NCBI GenBank assembly: GCA_963849325.1
Contig: CAWKHF010000007.1
Location: 544,001-608,000 of the forward strand
Length of the DNA stretch: 64,000 bases
Direction of reading: 5' to 3'
Origin: an uncultured Planctomycetota bacterium
GTDB taxonomy: Bacteria > Planctomycetota > Planctomycetia > Gemmatales > Gemmataceae
Shown in pieces: positions 6,681 through 64,000 of this stretch. The notes below the pieces were generated by a model, which made no database searches, had not been told where the DNA came from, and saw only the letters and a list, made by a program, of their open reading frames with translations. The position numbers and the translations under genes are program-made. Position 1 is the first letter of the stretch; the number at the start of each line of letters is the position of its first letter.

Positions 6681-6743
6681 AATGTGGCGGCACGTTTGTA
6701 ACGTGCCGTACAATCCAACACGTTGAAAACGTGTTGCCACATT
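6681..6743. repeat. REP-like double palindrome (GTGGCGGCACGTT..AACGTG type)
   Basis: AATGTGGC...GCCACATT outer inverted repeat enclosing two CACGTT-N2-AACGTG palindromes. Confidence 0.7.
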
Positions 6744-13619: not shown

Positions 13620-14444
13620 CTATTTGAGGGTGAAGGGCACGTTGTTCAGATATTTGAGAGCGGCGGTCATCTGGGCGGTGCCCGAATTGACGTAGTTGAT
13701 GAGCCGAATGCTGCCGTCGCACATGACGAACGGCGAGCCGCCATCGTAGGGCGAGCCCCAGCCGTTGTTGCTGGTAGAGGTAGTCGGCAAGTCCTTGCTG
13801 ATGTTATTCGCGCCGCGGCTAGTGCCGCCGTAGCCACCTGTGAAGACGCCTTCATCCCAGCTGTTGGCGGTGACGTGGCTGTAGTATTTGGTGGGCATGG
13901 ACTTCTCGCCGATCAGGATAGTGTTGCTCGTACCGTTGGCCGACGTAATCACCGACAGCGTGACGTGGGTGGTGTATCGGTTGGTGAAACTGACTTCGTT
14001 GATGGCGTAATCGACGAGCGGTTGCCGCCCTCCCGTCCCGCCGGTGGAGGCGCCAATGCGTCCGCGAGCCGGATCCAGGTAGGTCTTGATGGGAGTAGCC
14101 GGGTTGGGCTGGGCGCCTTTTGCGATCAGGTTGTAGAGGTTCTGCTGCTCGACGTAGGGCAGGATCTGAAAGGCCCAGCAGAACATGTAGTAGTTCCCCA
14201 ACCCCGACGTTCCGCCGCCGTTGCCGCCGGCGTTGGCCAGCCAGCCATAGGTGTCATGGTAGTTCTGGCAGCCCAGGCCGATCTGCTTGAGGTTGTTGAA
14301 GCACTGCGAGCGAGCGGCGGCGATGCGGACCTTCTGCACGGCCGGCAAGAGTAGACCGATGAGGATGGCGATGATGGCGATGACCACCAGCAACTCGATC
14401 AAAGTGAACGCGCGGACGTGCTTGCGGAACACAAACCTCGACAT
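13620..14444 (-). CDS. DUF1559 prepilin-type N-terminal cleavage/methylation protein
   Basis: [54 protein letters not shown]-terminal MCDGSIR. Confidence 0.92.
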
Positions 14445-14578
14445 GGAGACCTCGCTTCGGGGCGGAACAGAGGATGACGCGGAAAAGCAGCAGAAAACGG
14501 AGTGCTCGCGTCCGTGAAACAACTCTCATTCTGTTTTCACGTTTTTCTCACTCTCTGTCAAGAATAAAGTGAGTAATT

Positions 14579-14602
14579 CATCATTAATTCTTCTTAATGA
14601 TG
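14579..14602. promoter_or_regulatory. Candidate operator: CATCATTAA-N6-TTAATGATG
   Basis: Perfect 9-bp inverted repeat in an AT-rich patch of the DUF1559/thrS divergent region. Confidence 0.45.
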
Positions 14603-14706
14603 CGGGGAGGTTCCCGGCGGACGCCGTTTCTCGTCGCCGTCCAGGTTGGGACGTAGGATAGCGGCACCCGGGGCGCTCGAACCCGGGTCGTCGAACTCGT
14701 GTCCCG

Positions 14707-14742
14707 TCGAGGGCAGGCCCGTTGTAGGGGCGTGCGTCTCGA
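14707..14742 (+). promoter_or_regulatory. thrS leader hairpin with Thr-anticodon-like loop (GUUGUAG)
   Basis: Stem TCGAGGGCAGGCCC/GGGCGTGCGTCTCGA closes a 7-nt loop with UGU at loop positions 3-5, 10 nt before the GGAGG SD. Confidence 0.55.
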
Positions 14743-14763
14743 TCCGACTTATGGAGGGAAGCC

Positions 14764-16971
14764 ATGCTAACTCTGAAACTCCCCGACGGCTCCGTGCGTC
14801 AGGTTCCCGAAGGCACTCGGCCGCGCGAGGTGGCCGCGGCCATCGGCAAACGTCTGGCCCAGGCCGCCGTCGCCGCCAAGGTCAACGACGTGGTCGTGGA
14901 CCTCGACCGCGAGCTGCCCGCTGATAACGGCGAGCAAGCGTTTCAGGTGCTGACCGACCGAGACCCGGAAGCGCTGGCCGTGCTGCGCCACAGCTGCGCC
15001 CACATCATGGCCCGCGCCGTGCTGCGCCTGTTCCCCGGCACGCAGCTGGCCTTCGGGCCGGCCCTGGAGAATGGCTTTTACTACGACATCGATTCGCCGA
15101 CGCCGCTCCGCGAAGAGGATTTTCCACGCATTGAGGAGGAGATGCGCAAGATCGTCGCCGGCGCCGAGCCATTCGAGCGTTTCGAGCGGTCCACCGGCGA
15201 AGCCCGCGAGTTGGTGCGCGATCTGGGCCAGGGTTACAAGGTCGAGCACATCGACGACGATTTGAAGCAGTACCCGACCCTCAGTTTCTATCGGCAGGGC
15301 GAATTCATCGACCTGTGCCGCGGCCCGCACATTCCCAACGCCGGCAAGGTCGGCGCCTTCAAGTTGCTCAGCATCGCCGGTGCCTACTGGAAGAACGACG
15401 CCTCCCGCAAGCAGTTGCAGCGCCTCTACGGCACCGCTTTCTTCAACCAGAAGGATCTCGACGCCTATTTGCATCAGCTCGAAGAGGCGAAGAAGCGCGA
15501 TCATCGCGTGCTGGGCAAGCAGCTCAAGCTGTTCACCATCAGTCCCGCCGTCGGCAGCGGTCTCATCCTGTGGATGCCGAAGGGGGCGACCGTGCGCGGC
15601 ATCCTGGAGAACTTCATCAAGGACGAACTGCTGAAACGAGGCTATCAGCCGGTGTACACGCCGCACATCGGCCGGCTGGAACTATACCGCACCAGCGGCC
15701 ATTTTCCCTACTATCGCGATGCCCAGTATCCTCCTTTGTTTCTGCACCAACTCGGCCAGACCGTGGACACCTGGCTGTCCCTGCTGGAGGCAGAACAGCT
15801 CCAGCCCGAGGCCGAGAAGGCTTTTCTCGGAGTGTTGGAGGCAGCGGGGACGGAGATGACGGACGCTCCGGGCGAGCCGAGGGCGACCGTGCAGCTTTAT
15901 CGGGATGCGGGCGAGGACCGGGCGAGGAAAATGGAGGCTCTGAAGGGCTGGCTCAACCGGCAGGAGGGCTACCTCGTCAAGCCGATGAACTGCCCGCACC
16001 ACATCCAGATTTACAAGGCCGAGCCGCGCAGTTACCGCGATCTGCCGGTGCGCCTCGCCGAGTTTGGCACGGTCTATCGTTTCGAGCAGACCGGCGAGCT
16101 ATCCGGCATGACGCGCGTGCGCGGCTTCACTCAGGACGACGCTCATCTGTTCATCACCCCCGAACAGACCGAGGTGGAGGTCGGCGCCAATATCGATCTC
16201 GTCCTGTTCGTGCTGTCGAGCCTCGGCTTGAACGATTACCGCGTCCGCGTCGGTCTGCGCGATCCCAAAAGTGATAAGTACGTCGGCCGTCCCGAGAACT
16301 GGGAGAAGGCCGAAAAGACCCTGCTCGAATTGGTCCAGTCGCGCGGCATGAACTACAGCGCCGAGGAGGGCGAGGCGGCCTTCTACGGTCCCAAGATCGA
16401 CTTCGTGGTGCGCGACTGCATCGGCCGCGAATGGCAGCTCGGCACGGTGCAGCTCGACTACAACCTGCCGGAGCGTTTCGGCCTGGAGTACGTCGGCAAG
16501 GATAATCATCCGCATCGGCCGGTGATGATCCATCGGGCGCCGTTCGGCTCGATGGAGCGCTTCATGGGCATCCTCATCGAGCACTTCGCTGGCGCCTTTC
16601 CGCTGTGGCTGGCCCCGGAGCAGGCCCGCGTCATGCCCGTCAGTGACCGTTTCCGCGAGTACGGCGAGCGCGTCGAGAACGAGCTGCGCTCGCAGGGCTT
16701 CCGCGTCAGTGGCGATTATCGCCCCGAGAAAATTGGTTACAAAATCCGCGAGGCGCAGCTGGAAAAGCTGCCGTACATGCTGGTCGTCGGCGAGAAGGAG
16801 CAGAGCGCCGGCACGGTGTCGGTGCGCGACCGCGTGGAAGGCGACCGCGGCGCGATGCCCGTCGCGGAACTCGTCCATCGTCTCGCCGAAGAAGTGAGAG
16901 AGCGAAGCATCCGTCAGGTGAGCACCGCCAGCGCCGGCCTGGCGGACCGCGGCGCCCAGTTCGCGGATTGA
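14764..16971 (+). CDS. thrS: Threonine--tRNA ligase
   Basis: TGS domain, RHSCAHIMA, DLCRGPH, RDHR, KPMNCPHH, FTQDDAH, AFYGPKID, IHRAPFGSMERF. Confidence 0.98.
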   Translation: MLTLKLPDGSVRQVPEGTRPREVAAAIGKRLAQAAVAAKVNDVVVDLDRELPADNGEQAFQVLTDRDPEALAVLRHSCAHIMARAVLRLFPGTQLAFGPALENGFYYDIDSPTPLREEDFPRIEEEMRKIVAGAEPFERFERSTGEARELVRDLGQGYKVEHIDDDLKQYPTLSFYRQGEFIDLCRGPHIPNAGKVGAFKLLSIAGAYWKNDASRKQLQRLYGTAFFNQKDLDAYLHQLEEAKKRDHRVLGKQLKLFTISPAVGSGLILWMPKGATVRGILENFIKDELLKRGYQPVYTPHIGRLELYRTSGHFPYYRDAQYPPLFLHQLGQTVDTWLSLLEAEQLQPEAEKAFLGVLEAAGTEMTDAPGEPRATVQLYRDAGEDRARKMEALKGWLNRQEGYLVKPMNCPHHIQIYKAEPRSYRDLPVRLAEFGTVYRFEQTGELSGMTRVRGFTQDDAHLFITPEQTEVEVGANIDLVLFVLSSLGLNDYRVRVGLRDPKSDKYVGRPENWEKAEKTLLELVQSRGMNYSAEEGEAAFYGPKIDFVVRDCIGREWQLGTVQLDYNLPERFGLEYVGKDNHPHRPVMIHRAPFGSMERFMGILIEHFAGAFPLWLAPEQARVMPVSDRFREYGERVENELRSQGFRVSGDYRPEKIGYKIREAQLEKLPYMLVVGEKEQSAGTVSVRDRVEGDRGAMPVAELVHRLAEEVRERSIRQVSTASAGLADRGAQFAD

Positions 16972-63249: not shown

Positions 63250-64000
63250 ATGTCCGCCGCCTACAACGCGATGGAATTGATGATCTGCTGTGCCGCGCGT
63301 CTGCTGGAGGATGGGCGGACGGCGGCGGTCGGCACCGGCGTGCCGTGCGCCGCCGCCATGCTGGCCCAGCGTACCCATGCTCCGCACCTGGTCATCCTCT
63401 TCGAGGCCGGTGGCGTCGCGCCGCAGTTGCCGACCATGCCCATTAGCGTCGGTGATTCGCGCTCCTTCCACCGTGCCGTGATGGCCACCAGCATGGCCGA
63501 CATTATGGAGACCTGCCAACGCGGTCTGATCGATTACACCTTCCTCGGCGGCGCCCAGATCGACGCCTACGGCAACCTCAATTCCACCTTGATCGGTGGC
63601 GATTACGTCCGGCCGAAGGTGCGTCTGCCGGGCAGCGGCGGAGCTAATGACCTCGCCTCGTTCTGCTGGCGCATCTTCGTCGTCACCAACCACGACCGTC
63701 GCCGTTTCGTTGAGAAGCTCGATTTCCTGACGACGCCGGGCTACTTGACCGGCCCCGGCGCCCGCGAGGCCGCCGGTTTGTCGCCGGGCGCCGGACCTTA
63801 CCGCGTCATCACGGACCTGGCCGTGATGGGCTACGACGACCAGACCAAGCGCATGCAGGTACACAGCCTGCACCCCGGCGTCACGCTCGAACAGGTCCGC
63901 GCCGCCACCGGCTTCGAGTTGGGCGTCTGCGAGACGCTGGCCGTCACCGAGCCGCCTACGCCGGAGGAACTCCTCATTCTGCGCGAAGAAGTCGATCCCC
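63250..64000 (+). CDS. Family I CoA-transferase subunit B (GctB/CatJ-like; runs off the window)
   Basis: Own translation: ELMICCAAR; VGTGVP; FEAG; FLGGAQID.YGNLNST; RLPGSGGAND; FVEKLDFLTTPG; VITDLAV. Confidence 0.88.
   Translation, partial: MSAAYNAMELMICCAARLLEDGRTAAVGTGVPCAAAMLAQRTHAPHLVILFEAGGVAPQLPTMPISVGDSRSFHRAVMATSMADIMETCQRGLIDYTFLGGAQIDAYGNLNSTLIGGDYVRPKVRLPGSGGANDLASFCWRIFVVTNHDRRRFVEKLDFLTTPGYLTGPGAREAAGLSPGAGPYRVITDLAVMGYDDQTKRMQVHSLHPGVTLEQVRAATGFELGVCETLAVTEPPTPEELLILREEVDP

Follow-up and report, generated by a model that had tools for sequence, protein, structure and literature searches.

A conserved anticodon-like hairpin in the thrS leaders of Planctomycetia is a candidate threonyl-tRNA synthetase operator

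Results

A hairpin with a threonine anticodon in its loop precedes thrS

We analysed a stretch of 64,000 nucleotides (hereafter the window) from an uncultured bacterium of the Gemmataceae, Planctomycetota (assembly GCA_963849325.1, contig CAWKHF010000007.1, positions 544,001 to 608,000 of the forward strand). It contains thrS, the gene for threonyl-tRNA synthetase (ThrRS), and upstream of it a hairpin, P2, whose loop resembles tRNA-Thr's anticodon loop (Table 1). All coordinates are positions in the window; L, G, f and g denote leader loci, genomes, families and genera. The open reading frame (ORF) at 14764 is identified as thrS, encoding a full-length bacterial ThrRS, because its product combines the Pfam domains TGS (residues 6-53), tRNA_SAD (174-222), the class II core tRNA-synt_2b (400-608) and HGTP_anticodon (620-709), and it matches the Escherichia coli ThrRS chain 1qf6_A with E 1.6e-171. 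The anticodon-binding and N-terminal domains that control through a thrS operator requires are thus both present. The upstream gene is divergent, so that the 319-nt intergenic region (14445-14763) must contain the thrS promoter; scans of the leader returned 0 sigma-70 consensus sites and 0 terminator-like sites. ARAGORN, run over the window, found no tRNA near thrS (the sole tRNA is a tRNA-Ala at 63872-63966) and no cloverleaf at the leader, where a tRNA gene or remnant was accordingly rejected.

P2 has a stem of 14 pairs (14706-14715 with 14733-14743 and 14717-14720 with 14728-14731), which the mismatch G14716.G14732 and the bulged G14736 interrupt, and the fold of 14700-14770 has a minimum free energy (MFE) of -30.4 kcal/mol. 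A preliminary description had placed the stem at 14707-14720 and 14728-14742, which the fold reproduces to within one wobble pair. Numbered as in a tRNA, the loop reads G32, U33 (14722), U34 (14723), G35 (14724), U36 (14725), A37 (14726) and G38; both sequence and fold thus confirm the anticodon-loop geometry U33-U34-G35-U36-A37 and the threonine anticodon UGU that had been recognised there, as well as the 10 nt between the end of the hairpin (14743) and the Shine-Dalgarno sequence (SD; 14753). Relative to the AUG, P2 ends at -21 when the terminal G.U pair is counted and at -22 with the stem boundaries first described. All seven members of the genus with intact leaders have P2 as their MFE structure, with the GUUGUAG loop exposed.

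Taken alone, the fold of P2 beats chance only modestly (z -2.11, 6 of 200 dinucleotide-shuffled sequences folding equally well), and the wider fold of 14590-14790 (201 nt) has a z of -0.53. P2 is lifted above chance by its conservation in relatives and its rarity in the genome, not by the fold of this single sequence.

Table 1. Features at the thrS locus of the window.
Feature	Position	Strand	Basis or remark
Divergent upstream gene, DUF1559 / N-terminal methylation motif, prepilin-type	13620..14444	-	
Genus-conserved boxes CTCGTC (14630-14635) and TAGGATA (14654-14660), 18-nt spacer	14630..14660	+	alignment
P1, upstream hairpin, loop GCGCUCGAA (14673-14681)	14662..14693	+	MFE
P2 with three outer pairs, GUC 14701-14703 / GAC 14745-14747, across a CC/CC internal loop	14701..14747	+	MFE and centroid
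P2, anticodon-arm-mimic hairpin, proposed ThrRS operator	14706..14743	+	MFE fold, genus MFEs, RNAalifold, covariation
P2 loop, 7 nt, GUUGUAG	14721..14727	+	UGU is a threonine anticodon
Weak 5-bp hairpin UAUGG / CCAUG, pairing the AUG and the first two SD bases	14750..14766	+	fold
SD, GGAGGG	14753..14758	+	conserved in genus alignment
thrS, threonyl-tRNA synthetase, 735 aa	14764..16971	+	ORF and Pfam domains; ATG at 14764

The hairpin recurs across the Planctomycetia and keeps the bases of the threonine anticodon

In the first relatives inspected, members of other genera and of a second family had the same loop on altered stems, and some loops had CGU for UGU. We formalised this as a descriptor: a stem with 4 or more consecutive pairs, 3 or more of them Watson-Crick, closing a loop of 7-9 nt of the form x{1,2}-U-N-G-U-x{2,3}, located no more than 150 nt 5' of the start codon. 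Since the hairpin is too short for useful genome-wide E-values, descriptor counts with matched controls were used in place of a covariance model. In the Planctomycetia, the descriptor matched 67 of the 125 leaders of the genomes that carry G handles and, with one locus per genus, 44 of 77 genera; 200 dinucleotide shuffles gave 7.4 +/- 2.7 genera (maximum 15), an approximately six-fold enrichment. When GU at positions 35-36 was exchanged for any one of the remaining 15 dinucleotides, 0-14 of the 77 genera matched, which makes GU at least 3-fold commoner than any alternative, and a descriptor with a relaxed stem still matched 42 of 77 genera (shuffles 7.95 +/- 2.84). The preliminary description had suggested that this planctomycete may use a tRNA-mimic operator, a reading to which the conserved and GU-specific loop lends support. 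The hairpin is also local and strand-specific: among 74 genera, matches lay at -150..-1 in 43 and at -300..-151 in 6, and antisense matches occurred in 2.

Matches were spread over f1 (Gemmataceae, 15/28), f2 (6/12), f4 (Pirellulaceae, 12/16), f5 (Isosphaeraceae, 13/27), f6 (16/27), f11 (1/1), f12 (2/2), f14 (1/1) and f15 (1/1), with none in f3 (0/1), f8 (0/2), f9 (0/5), f10 (0/1) or f13 (0/1). The names of f1, f4 and f5 come from loci identical to named ones; f6 would be Planctomycetaceae, judging from the similarity of its loops to that of a named Planctomicrobium locus. At position 34 the matches have U (38), C (25), G (4, for example L117, L118 and L197) or A (0), exactly the three threonine anticodons. 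A37 is not conserved (A 31, U 15, G 15, C 6).

For covariation, 21 leaders (-75..+3) from f1, f2 and close named relatives, chosen because the hairpin had been seen in them, were aligned by MAFFT on sequence only; the close named relatives are Gemmataceae, with the ThrRS of L031 being 89% identical to that of the window. U33, G35 and U36 are invariant columns and position 34 varies among U, C and G only. RNAalifold returned the hairpin as the sole consensus structure of the 21 leaders, with 7 pairs of which 6 show compensatory changes, and P2 is the consensus on both of our sequence-based alignments, A1 and A2. Paired cells amount to 86.4% (74.1 +/- 2.2 in shuffles, with 0 of 500 reaching the real value) and the covariation score is 0.417, vs 0.208 in shuffles (again 0 of 500) and 0.04-0.13 when the partners are slid by 1-3 columns. 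The preliminary description had proposed looking in relatives for a loop GU kept over a covarying stem, and this is the pattern obtained. Moreover, several stems contain G.U pairs (CUC/GGG in L003 and L007; CCGGC/GUCGG throughout f5), which fits a sense-strand thrS RNA and not a DNA palindrome. As a positive control, the descriptor applied to the E. coli K-12 leader returned exactly the two known operator hairpins (-42..-22, loop UUCGUGU; -106..-85, loop AUUUGUUG).

These data bear on whether P2 could be a purely structural element, such as a stability hairpin, an RNase site or a transcriptional pause, with a Thr-like loop owed to phylogenetic inertia or chance. The modest single-sequence z and the abundance of hairpins in GC-rich genomes speak for it: 459 of 5000 random 150-nt windows of the window's genome meet the loose descriptor. 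We nevertheless regard it as quite improbable, given that the stems drift freely across families and U33, G35 and U36 stay, that GU exceeds every other dinucleotide, that position 34 admits only U, C or G, and that the leader has no terminator-like site.

The element is specific to thrS and largely confined to the class

In the 8.16-Mb genome of the window, the 13-mer CCCGTTGTAGGGG occurs once, at the thrS leader, and N-U-N-G-U-A-N loops on stems of at least 4 pairs occur 426 times over both strands; the expectation for the strict loop type is ~0.004 per 150-nt strand window. Nor is CCCGTNGTAGGGG a common word: 41 relatives contain 25 sites of it, compared with 92 of a reversed control pattern, and 9 of these are found 34-46 nt 5' of thrS, counting CCCGTNGTAGGGG sites only. 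Seven sites away from thrS were fetched from the CCCGTTGTAGGGG/CCCGTNGTAGGGG search as candidates for further regulon members and rejected, none having thrS downstream. Away from thrS, a single copy of the 13-mer forms a hairpin before a gene, at L275 (G023:C7). Its hairpin of 5 bp, CGCCC-GUUGUAG-GGGCG, stands ~57 nt ahead of an ORF of 118 aa, judged by eye to resemble a glyoxalase/VOC protein, and is probably chance.

Among 20 other aminoacyl-tRNA synthetase (aaRS)-family loci of the same genome, covered by 11 Pfam searches and a crude scan, no convincing cognate mimic was found: the matches were weak hairpins of 4-5 bp, inside coding sequence or far upstream of gene starts that are approximate because of frameshifts. 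Anticodon mimicry as a general aaRS strategy in this genome is thus not supported. On contigs C5, C10 and C12 of this genome (G000), aaRS genes are split over frames or contain stops (PF00133, PF09334, PF00749, PF00750, PF00152, PF00579). The assembly seems to carry many frameshift errors, so that gene starts elsewhere in the genome call for caution.

U36 followed by A37 is a context common to tRNAs reading ANN codons, and the hairpin might for that reason be recognised by some other binder of U-N-G-U loops, be it an enzyme that modifies or processes tRNA-Thr or an RNA-binding protein. This is improbable in our view: the element keeps to thrS, with 9 of 25 motif sites there and one copy in the genome, A37 is not kept, and the bases that are kept are those that define Thr anticodon identity (PMC9976931).

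A separate repeat of ~95 nt, resembling a miniature inverted-repeat transposable element, lies at 6687 (+). Its core hairpin, GCGGCACG-UUUGUAA-CGUGCCGU, has a loop that equals the anticodon loop found in tRNA-Thr(UGU), and 22 exact copies of the core are present on 10 contigs of G000; it is probably unrelated to thrS.

Outside the class, other Planctomycetota were at background (5 of 42 leaders). The named loci gave 15 of 25 for Planctomycetia-type leaders, 1 of 18 for Phycisphaerae and other Planctomycetota and 1 of 17 for other phyla; this set is not independent of the G-handle set, since several of its loci are the same records. Only family f66 (L258, L254) looks plausible outside the class; its loops are UUCGUAU, ACCGUAU and ACUGUAG (C at position 33), and it may harbour the mimic as a separate instance beyond the Planctomycetia.

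Loop formats and variant lineages

The loop comes in several formats. The 7-nt G-U-N-G-U-A-G form is found in the window's genus, several other Gemmataceae and f2; f5 has CCGGC-R-U-Y-G-U-N-N-GUCGG; f4 and f6 have a 9-nt loop, C-U-U-Y-G-U-A-N-C, in which a C.C pair encloses the tRNA-Thr loop UUNGUAA. The tRNA-Thr loops of the window's own genome are UUUGUAA, UUGGUAA, UUGGUGG and UUCGUAA (two genes), and share U33-N-G-U with the P2 loop.

Leaders of genus g18 in f2 (L020, L021, L022, L025) have two mimic hairpins, a distal one, CCCUCC-CUUUGUUCC-GGAGGG, ending at -52..-79, and a proximal one with a GUUGUAG or CUUCGUACC loop ending at -22/-23; theirs is the layout closest to E. coli operator domains IV and II.

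A fourth format accompanies a divergent ThrRS (~46% identity, without the TGS domain, starting MA(S/T)EAELKA) found in 14 Gemmataceae genomes (g23, g24, g30, g31; L208-L212, L262-L270). The U33 descriptor gave 0 proximal matches in 5 of these genomes and 2 distal ones in all 14. We nonetheless rejected the idea that the group has no hairpin, as 10 of 14 leaders form a long one with an invariant CUGU in an 8-nt loop, C-U-G-U-R-N-G-W, for which RNAalifold gives 15 pairs, 10 of them compensated; the CUGURNGW descriptor is post-hoc and is met by 164 of 20000 random windows. A UGU-bearing hairpin therefore accompanies thrS even where the enzyme lineage differs. A conserved YGUAACAUG box lies ~40 nt upstream in this group and might be a second mimic. 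In f1 genus g29 (L161-L163), thrS starts ~30-40 nt after the stop of the upstream gene, has no leader hairpin and seems to be operon-internal.

ThrRS matches in f4, f8, f9 and most of the phylum are split into residues 1-327 and 400-733, and the window ThrRS seems to carry an insert of ~70 residues (~328-399; 15745-15960) between its editing and catalytic domains.

Other parts of the leader

The preliminary description had also considered that stems upstream of P2 (about 14625-14705) could supply a second mimic domain. This did not hold here: hairpins equivalent to P1, with differing stem sequences, occur in the seven intact-leader genus members (L001-L004, L006, L007 and L016), and in all seven the loop has no NGU. 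P1 was rejected both as a second mimic and as a T-arm, its UCGAA-like loop not being kept in L003 and L004; it is possibly a 5'-terminal stabiliser. In E. coli the ribosome site is bipartite, comprising the SD and, 5' of the hairpin, a single-stranded U-rich domain III; the 12-nt linker between P1 and P2 (14694-14705) is not U-rich. Further upstream, the CTCGTC-N18-TAGGATA block, ~100 nt 5' of the ATG, may be a non-consensus promoter or the 5' strand of a helix enclosing P1: RNAalifold pairs GGAUA 14656-14660 with UGUCC 14700-14704, with one-sided changes only. The small hairpin over the AUG is unproven, because its sequence is conserved yet does not covary. Kissing of the P2 loop with the coding region was rejected, as no complement of GUUGUAG lies near the start.

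Searched against Rfam at E up to 10, the window leader had no relevant match, nor did it have one at the gathering score. Rfam 15 likewise returned none for five other leaders including that of E. coli K-12, and has no thrS-operator family; as the K-12 leader itself goes unmatched, absence from Rfam is uninformative on membership. The Firmicute thrS leaders L088 and L093, run as positive controls, score 122.8 and 101.5 bits against the T-box model (RF00230), so that the contrast with Firmicute T-boxes drawn from the start holds. A T-box is a cis-regulatory aaRS leader that exploits tRNA identity and the usual control of thrS in Firmicutes, and a riboswitch that senses tRNA, T-box-like or otherwise, or an attenuator with a leader peptide could be imagined for P2 on that ground. 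It is effectively refuted: a T-box binds tRNA by a specifier codon and switches a terminator, whereas this leader has neither a terminator-like site nor an Rfam match, and its loop presents an anticodon and not an ACN specifier codon, and hence cannot pair with the anticodon of tRNA-Thr.

Materials and methods

Leaders were taken from 40 relatives (L001-L030), a collection of named genomes (L031-L110), 120 evenly sampled genomes of the class and 110 genomes of the phylum. The thrS-bearing genomes G006, G018, G022, G032, G038, G063, G128 and G144 were left out (fragments only or not fetched). Records present in both sets are L031=L002, L036=L136, L048=L121, L045=L155 and L043=L190. In 24 public sequencing runs checked, none contained more than 0.06 of the sampled words of the window.

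Discussion

That ThrRS regulates its own synthesis by way of tRNA mimicry is a textbook example, for which the experiments were done in E. coli. There, ThrRS represses its own translation through the thrS operator (Springer, Romby, Ehresmann, Moras and colleagues; reviewed in PMC11088916 and PMC9976931). According to PMC11088916, PMC9976931, PMC7373986 and PMC3858243, this operator has four domains, with hairpins that are recognised as anticodon-loop mimics; bound ThrRS prevents 30S binding, tRNA-Thr competes, and a swap of anticodon-like bases moves control to MetRS. Deletion of the ThrRS N-terminal region abolishes control (PMC7373986), and a table of PMC9976931 lists G34, G35 and U36 among the bacterial Thr identity elements of the anticodon.

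P2 is almost certainly a real, conserved RNA element specific to thrS. Judged from its sequence and conservation, it is probably an operator for autoregulation that imitates the tRNA-Thr anticodon arm and represses thrS translation, and ThrRS itself is likely its partner. The loop presents U33, N34, G35, U36 and A37, with G35 and U36 being the anticodon identity nucleotides that ThrRS reads. When ThrRS is in excess of uncharged tRNA-Thr, free enzyme would bind this loop through its C-terminal anticodon-binding domain, and the bound dimer with its N-terminal domains would then hinder 30S binding and so repress thrS; tRNA-Thr would compete with the operator and relieve the repression.

The likeness to E. 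coli lies in a position in the thrS leader next to the SD, a loop that mimics the tRNA-Thr anticodon with G35-U36, a stem that has its 3' end near -22 relative to the AUG, like E. coli domain 2, the same set of ThrRS domains and the fact that one descriptor detects both operators. The planctomycete element differs in showing no detectable sequence relationship beyond the loop core, in having a stem of 14 interrupted pairs instead of 7 and no U-rich linker, and in belonging to a distant phylum, where its operator role is predicted from sequence. Eukaryotic cases are also parallels: for HisRS (PMC6542539) and ThrRS-RPC10 (PMC9956033), and for yeast AspRS, a synthetase is reported to bind an anticodon-like mRNA element and tune translation, in other mRNA contexts that are not homologous to this one.

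As to how bound ThrRS would act, the base of the stem lies 10 nt from the SD, where a bound dimer would hinder the 30S subunit, and we tend to favour steric exclusion. That confidence is lowered because the hairpin-to-start distance varies among families, and simple steric competition may not apply everywhere. An alternative is that ThrRS binds the hairpin with another outcome, be it mRNA decay, ribosome entrapment or a joint action with the AUG-covering hairpin. The variable position would suit it, as would the further hairpin that often lies between mimic and SD in f5 and f6 and the conservation within the genus of the 5-bp helix that pairs the AUG; the helix lacks covariation, however, and the spacing in the window and in f1/f2 is that of E. 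coli domain 2. We consider such other outcomes unlikely.

Several observations weigh against the operator interpretation as a whole. Descriptor matches are absent from 58 of the 125 leaders (33 of the 77 genera), and some lineages have C at position 33 or loops of 8-9 nt. Positions 32 and 38 of P2 (G and G) and its stem sequence are unlike the tRNA-Thr arms of the same genome. The distance from G35 to the start codon has family medians from -31 to -66 and ranges from -9 to -143. The E. coli operator offers two mimics (domains II and IV) to the ThrRS dimer, where the window and its genus have one. In L005 (G009, same genus), an insertion of ~83 nt inside the loop destroys the mimic; it replaces the GUUGU core, lies in the leader at about -140 to -45 and folds as an extension of the proposed operator stem (MFE -74.5, z -5.1), and looks like a small hairpin-forming mobile insertion that inactivated the mimic in one species. 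If the G009 assembly is right, the element is dispensable there. Finally, the descriptor was written after the first relatives had been seen and so formalises a prior prediction without being blind to it, and the shuffle statistics overstate significance because related genomes are not independent.

On balance we lean, by a small measure, towards tRNA-Thr mimicry in thrS leaders being an old device of the whole class Planctomycetia, with an origin independent of the E. coli operator and with at least four loop formats (7-nt GUUGUAG; CCGGC-RUYGUNN-GUCGG; 9-nt C-UUYGUAN-C; and 8-nt CUGURNGW on the divergent ThrRS). The background level in other Planctomycetota classes suggests an origin separate from that of the enterobacterial operator, which we regard as likely. 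The full-text literature searched holds no description of a thrS operator in Planctomycetota, although supplementary motif lists could contain one; the main text of PMC5737381, which reports 224 candidate structured RNAs, has 0 occurrences of thrS, anticodon or Planctomycet, its supplementary lists aside.

The dozens of natural loop and stem variants are a resource for testing what ThrRS needs for recognition, and the loop provides a simple annotation signature for thrS leaders outside Rfam coverage. If the interpretation is correct, the three threonine anticodons sampled at position 34 would form a natural mutagenesis series for anticodon recognition by ThrRS, and the element would be among the first predicted cis-regulatory RNAs of Planctomycetia with an assignable partner. 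Mimicry would then not be an enterobacterial curiosity: the same logic, realised with unrelated sequence and a different architecture in a distant phylum, would amount to convergent evolution of RNA mimicry.

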